A stretch of 64,000 bases of DNA from an uncultured Eubacteriales bacterium (GCA_905187695.1 CAJJIY010000005.1:8546-72545); one strand, 5' to 3'. Counted from the first letter of the stretch, positions 7,880 to 43,122 are shown. A program made the numbers and translations. Notes: generated from the letters alone by a model not told the origin.

Positions 7880-10726
7880 ATGAAAAAGCATTTTCGCATT
7901 GCGCTGCTTGCGGTTTTGACTGTCCTCATGGTCGGCCTTCTGGCACTGGCGGTCTGCGCCGCGGAGCCCGCGGAGCCCGCAGATACCGATTTTTATGAGG
8001 TTCTGGATGCCGAAGGTACGCATATCGAGTACAAAGCAACCTTAAAAGATGCGGTTGCCGTGTGTGAGGCAAACGGAACTTACACGATTAAACTTTTAAA
8101 AGATGCAACCGAATCTTCGGTTGCAAACCTGAAAGTTGCGGGCGTTACCGTGACACTGGATGGTAATGGCCACACGATTCAGATGAATAAGAATTTTGCG
8201 GTCACCAAAGCTGTCAATCTGACCATCAAAAATGTCACGATTTCAGCGGCCGACGCGGGCGCAAAATGGTTGTATGTGACTCAGGGTGCGGTCGGCGCTA
8301 CGATTACAATCGAAAGCGGTACATACAGTGGCCTGCTTGACAATGTGAGCGCCTCAATGACGATCAAAGGCGGTTCTTTCTCTGCTTCGGATGTGTGGTT
8401 GGCCATCGGTGCAAAGGCGAACGCTGCCACTGTGACGATCGAAAACGGCGAGTTTAATGGAAAACTGACAAACGACAGCGCAACGCTTGTCATCAAGGGC
8501 GGCGTCTTCAGATCCAGCGGTACATGGAAGACCGTGGATGGGAGTGAGGCGCACAATCCGCTTCAGGAGCCGCTGTTCCAGCCGAATGGCACATGGCTGA
8601 GCATCAGCAAAGTGACTTTCGGTGTGAATGTTACGATTGAAAACGGTACTTTTTATGGCGAACTGAACAATGACGGTGCAGTGCTGGAGATTTCGGGCGG
8701 TACTTTTTATGCGCCCGGCTCGTGGGCTGATGTCGTTGACCCCGTTTTGAATGTAGTTACCGATCAGAGATATTCTACCACCGGCAACTGGCTTACCATT
8801 GGTATCGGTACTGTTGCTCCGAATCCCGAAGAAGGCCAAACGGCTTTGGAAGATGCTCTTTCGACAATTAAGAACGGTACTTTCTACGGTTGCGTTTGCG
8901 GCGGCGGCGGCCCCATTACCATCCTGGGCGGCACCTTTACGAGCAATTACGCCACTGTGCGTAATGCTGAAACAAAAGAGGCGGCGAGCAGTTCTTTTGT
9001 TCAGATTAAGGGCGGTACCTTCACAACGACCGGTGACGCCTGCATCCTGATCTTTAACGGTTCGTTCTCCAAGCAGGCCGACGCGCGTCCGGACAAAGCC
9101 TGTGTTGTGATCGATGGTGGCACATTCATCGGCGGAAGCGGCGGTGTGCTGGACATTCAGGGCACGCCCTATTTCACCCTCATGAGAGATGTGCTGAATG
9201 CCAAAGGCGACTACACCCTGGAAGAGGCGCGCACGCTGATCGAGGAAAAATGCCCGGGCCCGTTCTACAGTGTTGTGGTCAATGACGCCGAAATGATCAA
9301 TGAGACCAACGGCGGAAACTCAAACATTTTCTGGGTCCGTAATGATTCCTGGAACTGCACGCTGATCATCAACGACGGCACTTTCACGCACAGAAACGGT
9401 AGCCGTGGCGGCTTTAATGCGGCCGGTGCGAAAATCATTATCAACGGCGGCGAATTCTCCTCGGATGTGAAAATTGTTTCCGCACACGATGGTGACTGCT
9501 GCTCTCCCATTGAGATCAACGGTGGTACCTTTACGGCGCTCAAGTCGGCTTATGTGCTTTTGCTGACCAGCGGCATTCCGATCGACACGACCAAATATGC
9601 GCTTACCATGATTCTGCCCGAACTTCACGGCCAAGCGCTCATTACTGGCGGCACTTTCTACAGCGAAGCTAAATACTGCATTTCCTTTGGCGATCAGGCT
9701 TCCTTTAGTGACCGGACTTTGACTATTACTGGCGGTACGTTCTCTTCTGGCGGTGATGCGGTCATCCGCGTCCGCCCGAAGACGGAGGGTGATGTCCTGC
9801 CGATTCTGAATATCAAGGGCGGCGTTTTCAGACTCCTGAAGGGCGACAGCACCGATGCCGCGCTGATTTATGACAAAGATAACGCAGCTTTCAACCTTAT
9901 CATTGAGGGCGGTACCTTCATTGACGAGCGCAAGGGCAACAAGGCCATTATCAGCACGATCAGCTCCGGAACGACCTGCAATCTGACCGTTACAGGCGGT
10001 ATCTTCCTGGTGGAGGGCGAGGATCAGGATTACTTCTTCAACACCAAATCGATTAAATCCAACATGGATGCTGATTTTGCTCCGGTCTATCAGTATGAAG
10101 GCAAAGAATACTTCATGTTCTTTATCTTCCCGCTGAAAACCGACACAAAGGTCAGCCCCACGCAGACCGTTGTGGCCCGTGTGGATGCCGAAAATCCAGG
10201 TATCCGCTTTGAAACCACTTTCCCGAAGGCTCAACTGGACGCTCTGAAGGAGAAGTTCGGTGCGGATGCAGTGTTCTCCTACGGTACGATCGTTATGACG
10301 ATGAACACGCTCTTTGATGTCAAGGGAGCCACGCACGAAGCGCTCAAGGCCTATGCCGCAACGAAGGAAAAGACCGATTCGCAGATCTTTGTGGATATTC
10401 CCGCGGTAAAAGGCATTGTTCAGCAGGAAAACGGCGATGTGCTCATTCGTGCTTCGCTGGTCAAGATCAAAGATGCTCACACCACGCAGTTTGTAATTGG
10501 TCTTGCCTATATCAAGGTGACGGTCGGTGAAACGGTAACCTATGTGTATACGGATGCTTCTCCGTCCGGCAACTGCTCCACGATGAGAGGCGTTGCCAAC
10601 GCGGCACTCAACGATGTCAAAATGAAGGCCAATGACCGTTACAAGTTCGGTTCTGAGACCGGCAAGGGCTTCTCGCCTTACTCCAAGGCACAGCAGGAAG
10701 CGCTCAAGAAATTCCTTGGCGCCTGA
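7880..10726 (+). CDS. 948-aa secreted GGxF-repeat (predicted beta-helix) protein with a distinct C-terminal domain
   Basis: ATG 7880 follows AAAGGAGA, and the signal peptide reads MKKHFRIALLAVLTVLMVGLLALAVCAAEP. About 17 [IV]x[IV]xGGxF units are present (TIKGGSF, VIKGGVF, EISGGTF, ILGGTF, QIKGGTF, VIDGGTF, IINGGEF, EINGGTF and others). The N-terminal cap is homologous to that of 2106..7541. Confidence 0.85.
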   Translation: MKKHFRIALLAVLTVLMVGLLALAVCAAEPAEPADTDFYEVLDAEGTHIEYKATLKDAVAVCEANGTYTIKLLKDATESSVANLKVAGVTVTLDGNGHTIQMNKNFAVTKAVNLTIKNVTISAADAGAKWLYVTQGAVGATITIESGTYSGLLDNVSASMTIKGGSFSASDVWLAIGAKANAATVTIENGEFNGKLTNDSATLVIKGGVFRSSGTWKTVDGSEAHNPLQEPLFQPNGTWLSISKVTFGVNVTIENGTFYGELNNDGAVLEISGGTFYAPGSWADVVDPVLNVVTDQRYSTTGNWLTIGIGTVAPNPEEGQTALEDALSTIKNGTFYGCVCGGGGPITILGGTFTSNYATVRNAETKEAASSSFVQIKGGTFTTTGDACILIFNGSFSKQADARPDKACVVIDGGTFIGGSGGVLDIQGTPYFTLMRDVLNAKGDYTLEEARTLIEEKCPGPFYSVVVNDAEMINETNGGNSNIFWVRNDSWNCTLIINDGTFTHRNGSRGGFNAAGAKIIINGGEFSSDVKIVSAHDGDCCSPIEINGGTFTALKSAYVLLLTSGIPIDTTKYALTMILPELHGQALITGGTFYSEAKYCISFGDQASFSDRTLTITGGTFSSGGDAVIRVRPKTEGDVLPILNIKGGVFRLLKGDSTDAALIYDKDNAAFNLIIEGGTFIDERKGNKAIISTISSGTTCNLTVTGGIFLVEGEDQDYFFNTKSIKSNMDADFAPVYQYEGKEYFMFFIFPLKTDTKVSPTQTVVARVDAENPGIRFETTFPKAQLDALKEKFGADAVFSYGTIVMTMNTLFDVKGATHEALKAYAATKEKTDSQIFVDIPAVKGIVQQENGDVLIRASLVKIKDAHTTQFVIGLAYIKVTVGETVTYVYTDASPSGNCSTMRGVANAALNDVKMKANDRYKFGSETGKGFSPYSKAQQEALKKFLGA

Positions 10727-23212: not shown

Positions 23213-23461
23213 TCAGAGCCGGTCCTGTTTCTTTTGCAGGCAGCGAAGCAGTGCCATCAGCACTTCTTTTGCCTCGGGTTCAAGGTCGGAAATGTCCAAT
23301 GTAAGATTGGACTGGGTACCAAGCAGATAGTCCGCGCTTACACGGAAAGCGCGGCAAAGCCCCGCTATGCTTGAAATGGATGGGTCGGACAGAGACATTT
23401 CCCAGGCGTTGACGGCGCTTCTGGAAATCCCCAGTTTTTTAGCCAGTTCAGCCTGTGTCAT
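23213..23461 (-). CDS. XRE-family HTH protein, apparently 5'-truncated (starts in helix 2 of the HTH_3 domain)
   Basis: It begins MTQAELAKKLGISRSAVNAWE...ADYLLG and lacks the usual LKxLRxxxG helix 1. The in-frame sequence upstream of the ATG is AT-rich non-HTH sequence belonging to the island. Confidence 0.6.
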   Translation of the reverse strand: MTQAELAKKLGISRSAVNAWEMSLSDPSISSIAGLCRAFRVSADYLLGTQSNLTLDISDLEPEAKEVLMALLRCLQKKQDRL

Positions 23462-23529
23462 GTGGTTTTCAACAAAATGTGTGTAATGGGAATATAAGAT
23501 TACTACAAACAGCCTTTGATATAAAAATT

Positions 23530-23569
23530 TAGACGGATAAATCGCTAAAATTTATCCGTCTATTTTTTT
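23530..23569. terminator. Strong hairpin terminator at the 3' end of the island operon (functional in both orientations)
   Basis: A 13-bp stem pairs TAGACGGATAAAT (23530-23542) with ATTTATCCGTCTA (23550-23562). T7 follows on the plus strand and AAUUUUUAU on the minus strand. Confidence 0.8.
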
Positions 23570-23710
23570 GCCTTATTTACGCTTTAATTTTATCTTCAAA
23601 CTCGCAAGGATTTTGCGACAATTGCGATTAGGCGTGTCTTGTCTTGATACAAGTAATGGAACCATTTTGGAAACGTAACGAATTCATAATTTGCAACAAG
23701 TATCGCAAGC

Positions 23711-24259
23711 TTATTCAAAATCAATTAACCCAACTTTCGCTTTATACGCTCGCAAATCATTTTGATATAATCCAATTACTCGAATTATCATTTTATTGAT
23801 CTCTGAGGCCTTATTGGTCATGGGAATCAATTTTTCTTTGATATAACTATTTACTGTTTTTGAATCGCTCAAATTCCCAGAAATAACATTGTTCTGAAAA
23901 ATCTTATGCACAATCAGTATTCTATAATCGTTTATTTCCTTAATCAAATCCGTCGCATTGTTCGGAAGTGAAGTGATTTCTTTCAGTTTGTCTTTTAATC
24001 TGCCCAATGTCCACTTTTCATCGTAGGTTTGAAAATAGTATTCATCATACTTTTGGCATATTTTTGAGACATTGTCTTTAGTCAAGCCTTCTTTTTCTAT
24101 CTCTTTTACGGACAATTCATAGCATATGAGTTTTCTTAAATTAAACTCAAGCATTTGTGCGACTTCTATGAAAAAGCCAATATTAGTGTAAAATGCGATT
24201 CGAACTTCCGTATTATCTTTTGAGATATTAGAATTAAACTGTATTTGAATGTCTTTCAT
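23711..24259 (-). CDS. 182-aa hypothetical protein, predicted all-helical, with an Rx4H motif (possible HEPN-like)
   Basis: It starts 24 nt downstream of the HTH gene with RBS GGTGAGAA. The codon usage is AT-rich. The motif YRILIVHKIF has R113 and H118, encoded at 23906-23923. Confidence 0.75.
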   Translation of the reverse strand: MKDIQIQFNSNISKDNTEVRIAFYTNIGFFIEVAQMLEFNLRKLICYELSVKEIEKEGLTKDNVSKICQKYDEYYFQTYDEKWTLGRLKDKLKEITSLPNNATDLIKEINDYRILIVHKIFQNNVISGNLSDSKTVNSYIKEKLIPMTNKASEINKMIIRVIGLYQNDLRAYKAKVGLIDFE

Positions 24260-24283
24260 ATATTGTTATTCTCACCAACGGTT

Positions 24284-25468
24284 TTATATAACGTTTATAT
24301 GTCCAAACTCCGGTTGCACGGGTTTCTTAATTGAAAATTCGATATAATCGGTCTCCAATAACAATTGATTATTTTTATCGGATTGTTTGAGAATGAAAGC
24401 ATATTTTCCATAAGCAAGACCGTTTATAGATTTGTAAAAATCTTCGACTGGAACATCACACTTTTTTATAATAGACCAACTCGATGGTTTTTGCACCGGA
24501 CCATAAGGACCTCCAACGGTTACATAGTCTTTCGGTACAAAAAGTTTGATTTCGGTGTGGTCATATTCATCGCAACAAGGCTGAAAATAAATATTAACCA
24601 AATCGGATCCGGTAGATACCTTTATTTCAGCGGTTGCTAACAAATTGTCTTTCTTTGCTTGCTCCAACTTTGCATAGTATTGTTCTTTGTCGGCTTCGGT
24701 ATAAGTAACATTAAGAATATAATCGGCGGCGATTTCGTTGATGAAAGAAAATTTGATCGCATCTATACGGTCGTTAAAATCGACAATAATTTTATACTGG
24801 TTGTCGGAAAAAGGGATTTTTATCCATTTGTTGTTTCTGCGAACGGAAATAACATCAAACGGAGGAATTCCTACATACTTCATATCGATAATTAAAGCGT
24901 ATTGCGTTTTTGTTATATCTTCATCTTGCGTTATGTTAAATGAGTCCGCCGATTCATCAAATGTGACGCAAGTATCCGAATGAACCGCATTTTCGGCACC
25001 GATTGGATAGCAGCGAGAAAAAACAAAAATCTTTAAAATCGCAAGATTGATAGCATCTAACATTTTGAATCTGGTTATAAATTTAGCGTCAATTTCGCAG
25101 AGCTTTTTGAACACATTAAAACTTTTGTAGCGCAAAATATAATCAACAATATTTTTGCCATTTTCATCTTTAGGAAGATCCTTTACTTCCTTTGCCAAAA
25201 CAACATCATCATTTTTGGCGCACAATTCTGCTTTGGATATAGTACCCACTTCTTTTTCCGTTATTTTCCCGGTCATAAGGTAATCTATTGAGACCTTGAA
25301 CAGAGTTGCCAGCACCGGCAATTGAGATATTTCAGGAAATCCCGCTTCGCTTTCCCACTTACTTATAGTTTTGTCGCTGACATTAAGTTTTTCAGCAAGT
25401 TCTACTTGTGTCCAACCTTTTGATTTGCGCAAAGTTGCTATTGTTTTACCAATACTATGTTCACACAT
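24284..25468 (-). CDS. 394-aa protein: N-terminal XRE-type HTH fused to a ~320-aa domain of unknown function
   Basis: The RBS GGAGG lies 7 nt upstream of the start. The HTH_3 region reads IGKTIATLRKSKGWTQVELAEKLNVSDKTISKWESEAGFPEISQLPVLATLFKVSIDYLMTG. I recognise no motif in the rest of the protein. Confidence 0.8.
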   Translation of the reverse strand: MCEHSIGKTIATLRKSKGWTQVELAEKLNVSDKTISKWESEAGFPEISQLPVLATLFKVSIDYLMTGKITEKEVGTISKAELCAKNDDVVLAKEVKDLPKDENGKNIVDYILRYKSFNVFKKLCEIDAKFITRFKMLDAINLAILKIFVFSRCYPIGAENAVHSDTCVTFDESADSFNITQDEDITKTQYALIIDMKYVGIPPFDVISVRRNNKWIKIPFSDNQYKIIVDFNDRIDAIKFSFINEIAADYILNVTYTEADKEQYYAKLEQAKKDNLLATAEIKVSTGSDLVNIYFQPCCDEYDHTEIKLFVPKDYVTVGGPYGPVQKPSSWSIIKKCDVPVEDFYKSINGLAYGKYAFILKQSDKNNQLLLETDYIEFSIKKPVQPEFGHINVI

Positions 25469-25498
25469 AATTAAACCTCCTTGTTTTTTTCTAACAAT

Positions 25499-25527
25499 GT
25501 TTTACCAAAACCATTCAGAAAAGTCAA
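25499..25527 (-). promoter_or_regulatory. Candidate extended -10 promoter of the island operon
   Basis: Read on the minus strand: TTGACT (25527-25522), a 17-nt spacer and TAAAAC (25504-25499), with TG two nt upstream of the -10. Confidence 0.45.
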
Positions 25528-25663
25528 CCTACTTGTAATATACACGAAAAGTGGGGAAGTGATTTGCAAAATTAAAAACTCTACGCTCAGTAGAATCATA
25601 CGGCATTTCTCATTAAAAGTCAATACAAACATGATGTTATAGGATTTCATCCTTTTCTCTACC

Positions 25664-25906
25664 ATGCGTGGTTTCCTGTTCTATCCCGAATTTATGCCGT
25701 TTGCATTTTCGGAACGGTCGGGATTGCTTGCGTTGTCTTTCGGGCATTTGCAACGGAAGTATTATTACGCTTCCTCTCTTTGCTATCTGGACGGTTCGCT
25801 GTATTTCCTCAACGGCTATTACTTCGGCGGCATCACCAATGTACTTGGCGACGCGCACACCTATCGTCTCGACCTTTCTACCGGCACGCTTACAAAGCTG
25901 GACTAA
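25664..25906 (+). pseudogene. Probable C-terminal remnant of a beta-propeller (DUF5050-like) protein
   Basis: The 80-aa ORF contains YYYASSLCYLDGSLYFLNGYYFGG...YRLDLSTGTLTKL, a blade-like repeat. It keeps its own terminator, but its 5' part is replaced by the AT-rich island. Confidence 0.35.
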
Positions 25907-25912
25907 AATCCG

Positions 25913-25950
25913 GAAGGAAACCGACATTTGTCGGTTTCCTTCTCTTTTTT
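25913..25950 (+). terminator. Rho-independent terminator
   Basis: GAAGGAAACCGA (25913-25924) pairs with TCGGTTTCCTTC (25931-25942), followed by TCTTTTTT. Confidence 0.8.
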
Positions 25951-42354: not shown

Positions 42355-43122
42355 TCAGCGAAGCGGGAAAAGCATAAAAAGGCCTTCCATTTCACTTCCG
42401 ATCAGAGCCGAAAACAAGATCTGAAGCACGATTCCCGCCACCGATGCGACAATGGCGATAATGCCCACGATCCGGGCGGTTTTGGCAGCGGCCGGTTCAT
42501 AACCGAGTTGCTGAGTGACGCTCTTGGATTTTGAGAGTGCCAGAATGCCCAGCACAATGCCGGCCAGCGAACAGCAGATAAAGCCCACAATCAGGCCGAT
42601 GATGCTCATGGTCTGCGCACTGTTGGCGTCGGCGTTCAGTTTGGCAATCCGGTTTTGCTCGGCGGTGTCGTTCGGGGTGGGCGGTGCGTAAGGGTTGTTC
42701 TGGAATCCATAGGTGCCGCCTTGATTCTGCGTGTACGGGTTTTGTCCAAACCCGTTGGGATTCTGTCCGAACCCATTCGGATTCTGCCCGAATCCATTTG
42801 GATTCTGCTCAAACCCGTTGGAGTTCTGCCCAAACCCGTTGGGATTCTGCCCAAACCCGTTGGGATTCTGCCCGAATCCATTTGGATTCTGCTCAAACCC
42901 GTTGGGATTCTGCCCGAATCCATTTGGATTCTGCCCAAACCCGTTGGAGTTCTGCCCGAACCTGTTGGGGTTCTGCTCAGCCCCGTTTTGATTTTGCGTA
43001 TGGTTTTGTTCCGTTCCGTTTGTGCCAAAATTGTTTTGGCTTTGCTGGTTTTGCCCGGAATCTGCCGGGTTCTGACCGAACCCGTTCGCGTTGGGTTCAA
43101 ATCCGTTCTGATCGCCGTTCAT
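42355..43122 (-). CDS. Membrane protein with an N-terminal Q/N/G/F-rich heptad-repeat region and a C-terminal DUF4190-like two-TM domain
   Basis: The RBS GGAGGG lies 4 nt before the ATG. About 11 NPNGFGQ-type heptads are present. The C-terminus reads MSIIGLIVGFICCSLAGIVLGILAL...IVGIIAIVASVAGIVLQILF. Confidence 0.8.
   Translation of the reverse strand: MNGDQNGFEPNANGFGQNPADSGQNQQSQNNFGTNGTEQNHTQNQNGAEQNPNRFGQNSNGFGQNPNGFGQNPNGFEQNPNGFGQNPNGFGQNPNGFGQNSNGFEQNPNGFGQNPNGFGQNPNGFGQNPYTQNQGGTYGFQNNPYAPPTPNDTAEQNRIAKLNADANSAQTMSIIGLIVGFICCSLAGIVLGILALSKSKSVTQQLGYEPAAAKTARIVGIIAIVASVAGIVLQILFSALIGSEMEGLFMLFPLR
42742..42972 (-). repeat. In-frame 21-bp tandem repeat, 11 copies (NPNGFGQ / NSNGFEQ variants)
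   Basis: Read directly, the plus strand shows AACCCGTTGGGATTCTGCCC(A/G) and AATCCATTTGGATTCTGC(C/T)C(A/G) units in succession. Blocks of several units recur, giving a higher-order structure. Confidence 0.9.

Follow-up and report, generated by a model that had tools for sequence, protein, structure and literature searches.

RNases of the HEPN superfamily are a recurrent effector in bacterial immunity and in toxin-antitoxin (TA) systems. Here, we analyzed a 64,000-nucleotide stretch of DNA from an uncultured Eubacteriales bacterium (GCA_905187695.1, CAJJIY010000005.1:8546-72545; "the window" below means this whole stretch), in which an AT-rich island carries an apparent two-gene operon, and we propose, with moderate confidence, that the island is a foreign insert holding the decayed copy of an undescribed three-gene, HEPN-based conflict cassette of gut Firmicutes. 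Described systems with which such a cassette can be compared are the HEPN abortive-infection (Abi) and toxin RNases, the HepT-MntA pairs, the Xre regulators of type II TA and defense modules, and those effectors of type III CRISPR that join CARF, helix-turn-helix (HTH), and HEPN domains. The active site of HEPN RNases is an Rx4-6H motif, with a polar residue (N, D, or H) after the arginine, together with an upstream Ex3[KR] motif (Anantharaman et al. 2013, PMC3710099), and the term HTH-HEPN is already in use (PMC11317161 and PMC9704534). The cassette joins an HTH-HEPN protein to one with tandem beta-sandwiches and to a small HEPN-like partner, a combination that was not found in the libraries or literature searched.

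The apparent two-gene operon is a deletion product

A sequence-only reading of the window had described the island as a complete, self-contained two-gene unit. The two minus-strand open reading frames (ORFs), 24 nt apart, are as it described them (ORF A, 24284 to 25468, 394 aa; ORF B, 23711 to 24259, 182 aa), but the unit is not complete, ORF A being a fusion left by a 1,520-bp deletion within a three-gene cassette. Database matches of ORF A formed two disjoint classes, namely ~264-aa proteins without a Pfam domain (63% coverage) and ~630-aa HTH proteins (37%). Pairwise alignment gave 99% identity between its residues 1-145 and residues 1-145 of the 632-aa protein P0045, and 98% identity between its residues 146-394 and residues 20-268 of the 268-aa protein P0001; the largest ORF of the operon is a chimera of two proteins. 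The locus L001, from another sample, has the window's flanking genes but three genes of 632, 264, and 182 aa (g1, g2, and g3 below), and genes of these lengths also stand at the window's site in L018, L021, and L022. The window's DNA equals that of L001 minus 1,520 bp (L001 2231-3750), with 1 nt of microhomology at the junction, and the deletion joins codon 145 of g1 in frame to codon 20 of g2. The insert and its genes are placed as follows.

23497 to 25760, unstranded: foreign insert of 2,264 bp, compared with 3,784 bp in intact alleles, delimited by G+C content and locus comparison
25034 to 25468, minus strand: N-terminal part of ORF A, g1 codons 1-145 (XRE HTH and helical linker), with the junction at 25034
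24284 to 25033, minus strand: C-terminal part of ORF A, g2 codon 20 to stop, tandem FN3/Ig-like beta-sandwiches
23711 to 24259, minus strand: g3, 182 aa, intact (alignment, AlphaFold2 model, remote relatives)

The window copy has lost the g1 middle region, the g1 HEPN domain, and the g2 N-terminal helix, and has kept the promoter/operator region, the HTH-linker part joined to the two g2 beta-sandwich domains, and g3, which is intact. With the HEPN domain of g1 deleted, this copy is most likely a remnant, disabled as a system. The exact 394-aa fusion occurs in contigs of at least three other samples, all independent metagenome assemblies, and is therefore a real allele and no assembly artifact. 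The fusion is very young: the intact locus L021 matches the window at every position of g3 and of the g2 part that was retained, and in the g1 N-terminus only 2 of 435 nt differ. The sequence-only reading was thus right about a real foreign island and an undescribed family, but it mistook a decay product for a complete system. The annotation is corrected accordingly: what looked like a novel two-gene operon is an evolutionarily "days-old" deletion product, and cloning the window's operon would test a decay artifact.

The proteins of the intact cassette

Intact g1 (~630 aa) consists of an XRE HTH, a helical linker, a long middle region, and a C-terminal HEPN domain. The HTH is of the Cro/C1 type (HTH_3, E~1e-10), with an ICEBs1 ImmR-type regulator as its best relative in the PDB and a weak match to Pfam Phage_CI_repr; the middle region (~350-430 aa) gave no match. 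Within the C-terminal domain, LRxxRNxIVH is invariant in all intact g1 members aligned, with [ED]Ax[LF][KR] upstream. The R-N-x3-H motif itself (R122, N123, H127) is invariant in 11 divergent g1 C-termini and visible in 13 of 13 sequences, and the upstream acidic Ex3[KR] motif is conserved as RMEAVLK, RLEAILR, or LFDAILK. When isolated, 10 of 11 g1 C-terminal domains matched HEPN_RiboL-PSP (best E=4.1e-7), and the other recurrent matches (DUF4145, Cthe2314, and Apea) are HEPN-clan families, while PDB profile searches with the g1 and g1-C-terminal alignments returned HTH proteins or noise only. As the catalytic Rx4H is fully conserved, an active RNase is predicted (per PMC3710099), and the HEPN domain of g1 is the cassette's most securely assigned candidate effector.

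The g2 protein (~264 aa) is modeled with an AlphaFold2 pLDDT of 86.5 as a short N-terminal helix followed by two beta-sandwich domains that are joined by a helix. The N-terminal helix, MDKYQKYIL, is conserved (Y8 and Q9 are invariant in the alignment) and absent from the window's fusion. Foldseek of the model returned only generic tandem beta-sandwiches of the FN3/cytokine-receptor-like kind at low TM-scores, so that the structure does not disclose the function of g2.

The model of g3 is an all-alpha five-helix bundle (pLDDT 93.3). Seven residues are invariant (E32, Q35, E38, N40, R42, R113, and H118), and all are kept in the window copy. Two of them, E38 and R42, are the ends of an Ex3R motif, E38-F-N-L-R42, and two others form an Rx4H motif, whose arginine and histidine (R113 and H118) do not vary among 42 close and 28 distant sequences. 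The family is a small one, as a search of 1.84 billion proteins gave 62 representatives; its mean column identity is 61%. A deep search reached remote relatives at E values of 1e-11 to 1e-4, in which RNxxVH stands in register with the YRILIVH of g3. Of these relatives, 8 of 28 match HepT-like (P0402 at 25.1 bits, above the cut-off of 23.5), and as a group they also match DUF4145, RiboL-PSP-HEPN, and Apea. Taken together, motif and relatives suggest that g3 is probably a divergent member of the HEPN superfamily. PDB profile searches with the g3 and broadened-g3 alignments returned HTH proteins or noise only. A direct family assignment of the ORF A C-terminus and ORF B through Pfam, NCBIfam, PHROGs, and PADLOC was tried and yielded the HTH only. 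Profile searches on both window proteins and Foldseek on the g2 and g3 models thus gave the HTH and FN3-type g2 matches but nothing significant for g3, and the claim that the proteins are undescribed held up, as no described defense or TA family was matched beyond the generic HTH.

Promoter candidates, operator-like palindromes, and boundary element

The regulatory features of the cassette as they stand in the window are listed here.

25476 to 25480, minus strand: GGAGG ribosome-binding site (RBS) of ORF A
25499 to 25527, minus strand: promoter candidate P2, TTGACT-17-TAAAAC with TG (TTTACT-17-TAAAAT in other hosts)
25595 to 25623, minus strand: promoter candidate P1, TTGACT-17-TATGAT (10/12), a better match than P2
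25579 to 25594, minus strand: operator-like palindrome TCTACTGAGCGTAGAG (CTAC-N7-GTAG), immediately past the -10 box of P1
23530 to 23562, unstranded: terminator hairpin with a 13-14 bp stem and a T7 run on the plus strand
23594 to 23653, minus strand: structured boundary element of 60-63 nt, downstream of g3

The GGAGG RBS named in the sequence-only reading is present. The promoter that it proposed (P2) exists and is conserved across hosts, but P1 is the better match, and its equivalent in L006 is a perfect TTGACT-17-TATAAT. L002 has a second CTAC-N7-GTAG copy, placed between P1 and P2, of which the window keeps a degenerate form (25540-25554); promoters and palindromes are conserved in an alignment of five loci. 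We infer from this arrangement that the g1 HTH binds the CTAC-N7-GTAG palindromes. The proposed terminator with a 13-bp stem does form a hairpin, of 13-14 pairs, but its T7 run is on the plus strand; as the operon strand reads AAATTTTTAT, the terminator is bidirectional. An Rfam scan of the window at gathering score found no family, with sub-threshold noise only, at the terminator, and an RNA gene or riboswitch in the island was rejected on the same result.

Only in L002-type loci does the boundary element stand at both ends of the cassette (L002 5026-5088 and 8606-8668), and homology between L006 and L001 ends exactly at its start. It consists of two small hairpins, CTTGT-ATCAAG-ACAAG and TCGCAA-N5-TTGCGA, without a match in Rfam, and a variant second stem in L033 (7145-7170, TCAAG/CTTGA) could be compensatory. 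The element may be a recombination boundary or a 3'-untranslated-region/terminator module.

Insertion edges and damaged neighbors

In a 300-nt sliding window, G+C content falls from 0.51-0.58 to 0.30-0.38 at about 23400-25700 and then returns to ~0.55, the abrupt drop that had been noticed from the sequence. The insert (23497-25760) has 34.5% G+C between flanks of 55.1% and 54.9%, and at 1-kb resolution nothing else in the 64 kb drops below 42%, the values closest to it being 44.4% and 46.1%. Its limits, first put at 23462-25663, have to be moved to about 23497-25760. The features at its edges are these.

25763 to 25906, plus strand: remnant of a DUF5050/MBG gene, last 47 codons and stop (comparison with L012-L017, Pfam)
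25912 to 25943, plus strand: terminator of the lost propeller gene, a 14-bp stem and T-run
25681 to 25758, minus strand: last ~25 codons (FRCKCPKDNASNPDRSENANGINSG and stop) of a homologue of a 62-aa gene, donor-context DNA
23469 to 23496, minus strand: surviving 28 nt of the XRE upstream region, abutting the insert's left edge
23467 to 23468, unstranded: scar of a 127-bp deletion (L051 215-341) with two filler bases, from L051 versus the window
23213 to 23461, minus strand: XRE regulator remnant, an 82-aa ORF from an internal Met, with promoter, RBS, and first 17 codons missing

Strains without the insert confirm that the DNA is foreign. Six contigs, including L012 of NCBI assembly GCA_037250655.1, encode a 277-aa neighbor identical to the window's, and upstream of it L012-L017 keep a large gene intact, whose product of at least 894 aa matches DUF5050 (beta-propeller) at E=1.7e-29 and also has MBG repeats. 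Host homology to this gene stops at window 25761, so that of the 80-aa ORF that had been taken for a propeller remnant only the last 47 codons come from the large gene; the remnant is real, but the first ~32 codons are foreign. It keeps its own terminator, as had been seen, and at least 2.5 kb of the gene were replaced. The ~130 bp at 25630-25760 (45% G+C) are also foreign and hold the end of the 62-aa-gene homologue; the 62-aa gene precedes the cassette in L002, and L001 1534-1619 is ~80% identical to L002 4824-4909.

At the left edge, the XRE neighbor is truly truncated, its Pfam HTH_3 coverage being limited to profile positions 10-55 of 55, but it was not cut by the island. The intact allele is a 99-aa protein (P0241), 99% identical to the remnant and encoded on a 612-bp contig (L051), of which 342-612 align to window 23466-23196 and 187-214 to window 23496-23469 (93%). 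These two matches indicate that a separate 127-bp deletion cut the XRE gene, removing its operator-like palindrome, promoter, RBS, and codons 1-17. The promoter region of the intact gene in L051 has an inverted repeat, ATTGTCAAG...TTTGACAAT, and the contig ends in a divergent gene start (GGAGG-N5-ATG), which together suggest that the XRE protein regulated the adjacent large DUF5050/MBG gene. The intact large gene (L012-L017) and the intact XRE allele (L051) were both found, but no single contig spanned the left half of the empty site, in which the start of the large gene joins the XRE gene; L051 is only 612 bp long and L012-L017 end inside the repeat-rich gene.

The left edge shows a short TATAT(T)TCC similarity common to host and donor-like sequences. 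No target-site duplication, integrase, or tRNA was found at the island; similarity at the junctions is 0-9 nt, and host DNA is deleted. As the sequence-only reading had stated, the island has no recombinase ORF, and a tRNA search of the 64-kb window found none; with no flanking repeats at the window's junctions either, a mechanism through integrase, tRNA, or att site was rejected. The insertion is a replacement by illegitimate recombination, with a fragment from an L002-like donor arrangement.

Elsewhere in the window, a 255-aa ORF on the minus strand (42355-43122) has about 15 tandem NPNGFGQ repeats and C-terminal hydrophobic segments; its product is a low-complexity membrane protein, and it lies in a region with strongly negative AT skew.

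Distribution, allelic series, and decay of the cassette

The block that other hosts share at ~79% DNA identity corresponds to the AT-rich core, window 23474-25629, and the genes of the cassette are spaced 3-24 nt apart. Its chromosomal context differs from host to host. The window's copy has MetRS, GPDH, TatD, EF-G, PGK, TIM, and RbfA as neighbors. In L002-L005, from a sporulating Firmicute, the cassette lies between addB/resolvase and a polyprenyl synthase gene, in L006 next to GH38 and SIS-regulator genes, in L039-L044 between P-II/DUF1538 and ABC transporter genes, and in L045-L050 between rpsD and a pseudouridine synthase gene. L003 differs from the otherwise collinear L002 by the insertion of an IS200/IS605-type Y1 transposase gene (10134-10673), ~1.5 kb downstream of the cassette.

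Homologues of g3 occur in 12 species-representative genomes of GTDB, among them Christensenellaceae, Candidatus Scatosoma, several Clostridia metagenome-assembled genomes, and Eubacterium sp. CAG:841. The order g1-g2-g3 is kept in 6 of the 12 despite g1 identities of 25-45%; the other six comprise two genomes with visible decay, two with only g3, and two that are uninformative. More distantly, two IMG/VR contigs (L052 86-8627 and L053 455-6888) carry a g1-like protein (729 aa, HTH...RNxxxH) paired with a g2-like one, without a detectable g3 and next to two tandem large serine recombinases; the g1-g2 pair may be the older core, carried on integrative elements in this branch. IMG/VR gave no g3.

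Two loci have g3 without g1 and g2. In L038 (6428-11923, Eubacterium sp. CAG:841), the g3 homologue stands at the end of a set of HTH, PDC-M11A, PDC-M11B, and HNH_5 genes, adjacent to a large serine recombinase; PDC-M11A contains an ASCH domain and matches PADLOC at 1e-153, and PDC-M11B at 1e-39. Here, g3 may be an accessory of the PDC-M11 candidate defense system. In L037 (7893-10534), g3 follows a 391-aa P-loop and NTP_transf_2-like protein (E=6e-4, just under threshold) and also a PHP-domain protein, which recalls the pairing of HEPN proteins with nucleotidyltransferases.

Within the window's species, presence of the cassette is strain-variable, and one site shows a whole series of alleles: a no-insert form (L012-L017), the intact 632/264/182-aa form (L001, L018, L021, L022), a mosaic 627/264/182-aa form with a strongly different g1 (L023/L024), the 394/182-aa deletion form of the window, and a form in L020 in which a 263-aa truncation runs into the XRE remnant and g2 and g3 are lost. 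Over L023/L024 1229-3112 and L018 4474-6372, the mosaic copies are ~98% identical in g2 and g3, differ at 97 of 435 nt in the g1 N-terminus, and are only ~75% identical in the middle of g1, which points to recombination between diverged cassette copies. Such a one-species, one-site series of empty, intact, mosaic, and three kinds of deletion alleles could be used to study cost and turnover of the cassette in the human gut.

Disruption of g1 has arisen independently many times. L005 (5279-5716) has a TCA>TGA nonsense change at g1 codon 146, the codon at which the window's 1,520-bp deletion also starts; L045 has a 1-nt frameshift near codon 160, L047 has lost the g1 N-terminus, L032 has an in-frame internal deletion, and L020 has a C-terminal truncation. 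Fusions of g1 to g2 or g3 occur in the window and in P0024, P0035, P0037, and P0189. A 352-362-aa g1 in L039-L044 (7085-8173) lacks residues ~105-370 and keeps HTH and HEPN in frame; this form is present on dozens of contigs of up to ~1 Mb and may be a functional short architecture instead of decay. Breaks just past the N-terminal module (codons ~85, ~105, ~112, 146, and ~160) form a cluster that could be coincidence, a selected domain boundary, or ascertainment bias.

Interpretation and competing explanations

The comparisons show that a foreign, low-G+C fragment with a g1-g2-g3 operon replaced host DNA in a human-gut bacterium that NCBI labels Eubacteriales/Clostridia (MetRS MDD7701023.1). 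The replaced stretch began in the XRE upstream region and took in the whole DUF5050/MBG surface-protein gene except its last 47 codons, and a very recent 1,520-bp deletion in the window's lineage then fused g1 codon 145 in frame to g2 codon 20. We propose that the intact cassette is a conflict module of the TA or abortive-infection type, autoregulated and based on a HEPN RNase, in which the g1 HTH would repress the operon at the CTAC-N7-GTAG palindromes overlapping the promoters and the g1 HEPN domain would be the RNA-cleaving effector. The g2 protein might serve as a protein-binding sensor or adaptor subunit, and g3, as an antidote or a HEPN-like partner, might modulate or complement g1. Domain content, mobility, and the pattern of decay make a defense or TA function of the parent cassette plausible, and we read it as a conflict system because it is strain-variable, sits at multiple unrelated sites, and shows repeated independent disruption of g1, and because a distant g1-g2 pair has recombinase neighbors and one g3 homologue lies behind PDC-M11.

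Several results weigh against this account. The Pfam scores of the g1 HEPN domain lie mostly just under gathering (27.4 against 28.4 bits for P0045), so we treat g1 as a member of the HEPN superfamily and not of the RiboL-PSP family. For g3, there was no direct match in Pfam or among PDB sequences, and Foldseek of the model against PDB and BFVD found nothing at E<0.1 and HepT chains only at E~1-2, though helical bundles are hard cases for Foldseek. The residue after R113 in g3 is I, V, S, N, or D, usually hydrophobic, and I in the window. Aligned with hhalign, g3 and the g1 HEPN domain reach a probability of 0.5-2.5%, with the motif alone aligning, and we therefore do not claim them as paralogues. 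The roles given to g2 and g3 are guesses. PADLOC-DB v2.0.0 matched the HTH region only (RmrA N-terminus, HTH_VI, CapH) and neither g2 nor g3. Searches of 50,697 phage genomes (INPHARED/GenBank) with g3, g2, and g1 outside its HTH returned no relatives, and 72,556 plasmids in PLSDB gave none for g3, so that an origin from phages or plasmids is unsupported by these searches and by that of IMG/VR for g3. Conserved gene order did turn up when co-occurrence was checked, but most neighborhoods, in the window and in most relatives, are housekeeping and not defense islands, L038 being the single exception with defense genes. The pattern that g1 decays while g3 persists is biased, because the loci were mostly retrieved through g3, and it is broken by L020, without g2 and g3, and by L052/L053, without g3. 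Finally, the deletion is too recent for selection on the remaining genes to be read from the sequence.

A narrower version of the proposal makes the intact cassette an undescribed anti-phage system of the abortive-infection type in gut Clostridia, in which a self-repressing XRE-HTH-HEPN RNase would be checked or triggered by a g2 sensor together with g3, and recurrent truncations past the HTH, the window's fusion among them, would be selected, "disarmed" forms that keep repression and immunity. We regard this version as possible, though tentative.

The cassette might instead be an XRE-type transcription factor with two accessory proteins in an ordinary role, such as RNA processing or stress response, and in no conflict at all. 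HEPN domains are also present in non-toxic RNA-processing proteins. This would suit the housekeeping neighbors in most genomes, the lack of PADLOC matches and of phage or plasmid copies in the searches made, and the strong conservation of g3 at a mean column identity of 61%. It is harder to reconcile with a cassette of foreign composition that is present in some strains of a species and not in others, occupies different chromosomal sites in different hosts, and frequently and independently loses g1 function, and whose distant branch adjoins serine recombinases on predicted mobile or viral contigs; the fully conserved catalytic Rx4H also predicts an active RNase (PMC3710099). We consider an ordinary role unlikely.

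Still less probable, in our judgment, is a degraded fragment of a prophage or integrative element, comprising an immunity repressor with superinfection-exclusion or moron genes. The best PDB match of the HTH is of the ICEBs1 ImmR type and Phage_CI_repr was weakly matched, a resolvase and a small gene lie upstream in L002-type loci (with part of the small gene in the window), and the distant g1-g2 pairs stand beside serine recombinases on IMG/VR contigs. Against this, no other phage or integrative-element genes flank the cassette in the window, L006, L039-L044, or L045-L050, the three genes move as a unit with their own promoter and terminator, and the 50,697 phage genomes gave zero matches. 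The explanation also overlaps the conflict cassette that we favor, since morons often are defense or TA modules.

That the island is a complete, functional two-gene defense or TA system of an HTH protein and a 182-aa protein is quite improbable. In its favor, neither ORF is interrupted, a conserved promoter, an RBS, and a terminator are present, the two-gene allele recurs in several metagenomes, and g3, found without g1 and g2 in L037 and L038, may act alone. The mapped 1,520-bp deletion nevertheless makes ORF A a junction of two proteins, one that lacks the g1 HEPN domain and the g2 N-terminal helix. Intact three-gene alleles exist at the same site, one of them identical across g3 and the retained g2, and fusions are otherwise rare, sporadic, and of different architecture.

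The least probable explanation is that the truncated form was selected as an "anti-addiction" or immunity remnant against the intact cassette, keeping the HTH repressor and an antidote-like g3 with the HEPN domain deleted: g1 breaks do cluster past the N-terminal domain (codon 146 twice independently, ~160, ~105, ~85, ~112), the HTH is kept in most disrupted g1, and g3 is intact in nearly all loci examined, but retrieval through g3 and N-terminal matches makes the pattern look stronger than it is, the deletion in the window is not old enough for selection to show, and L047 lost the HTH instead while L020 lost g2 and g3.

Comparison with known systems

The analysis defines a compact cassette of three genes, known so far from uncultured gut Firmicutes, which combines a well-supported HEPN RNase domain with a possible second HEPN protein and a beta-sandwich partner. 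PHROGs and PADLOC-DB gave no match to it beyond the HTH. Its closest likenesses are to HEPN-based Abi and toxin RNases and to Xre-autoregulated TA modules. With the HEPN Abi and toxin RNases (RiboL-PSP-HEPN PF18735, DUF4145, AbiV/AbiU2/AbiJ), g1 shares the RNx3H and Ex3[KR] motifs, and g1 is likewise mobile, strain-variable, and often inactivated, as expected of the toxin of a conflict system. It differs from them in that its scores stay mostly below gathering and no RiboL-PSP domain is present in the cassette, and in its layout, an N-terminal XRE HTH, an uncharacterized region, and the HEPN domain, with obligate beta-sandwich and small-helical partners.

With the HepT-MntA (HEPN-MNT) systems the cassette shares a small, stand-alone protein with Rx4H, g3, whose remote relatives match HepT-like. 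No nucleotidyltransferase domain is found in g1, g2, or g3, however, and only L037 has an NTP_transf_2-like gene nearby; g3 itself differs from HepT in having no sequence or Foldseek match and usually a hydrophobic residue after the motif arginine. The Xre regulators of type II TA and defense systems (HipB, PezA, the spr1629 family, CapH, and the RmrA N-terminus) match the HTH at E values of 1e-7 to 1e-14, and conserved palindromes overlapping the promoters of a compact operon are a further likeness. The similarity is nonetheless confined to the ~70-aa HTH and reaches no curated cut-off, and in the cassette the HTH is fused to the putative toxin and not to a small antitoxin. The CARF-HTH-HEPN effectors of type III CRISPR (Csx1/Csm6) likewise hold an HTH and a C-terminal HEPN RNase in one polypeptide, but no CARF domain, no CRISPR-Cas genes nearby, and no sequence similarity to them were detected for the cassette. 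Set beside these systems, a three-component HEPN version in which the HTH is fused to the RNase would add a new regulatory layout.

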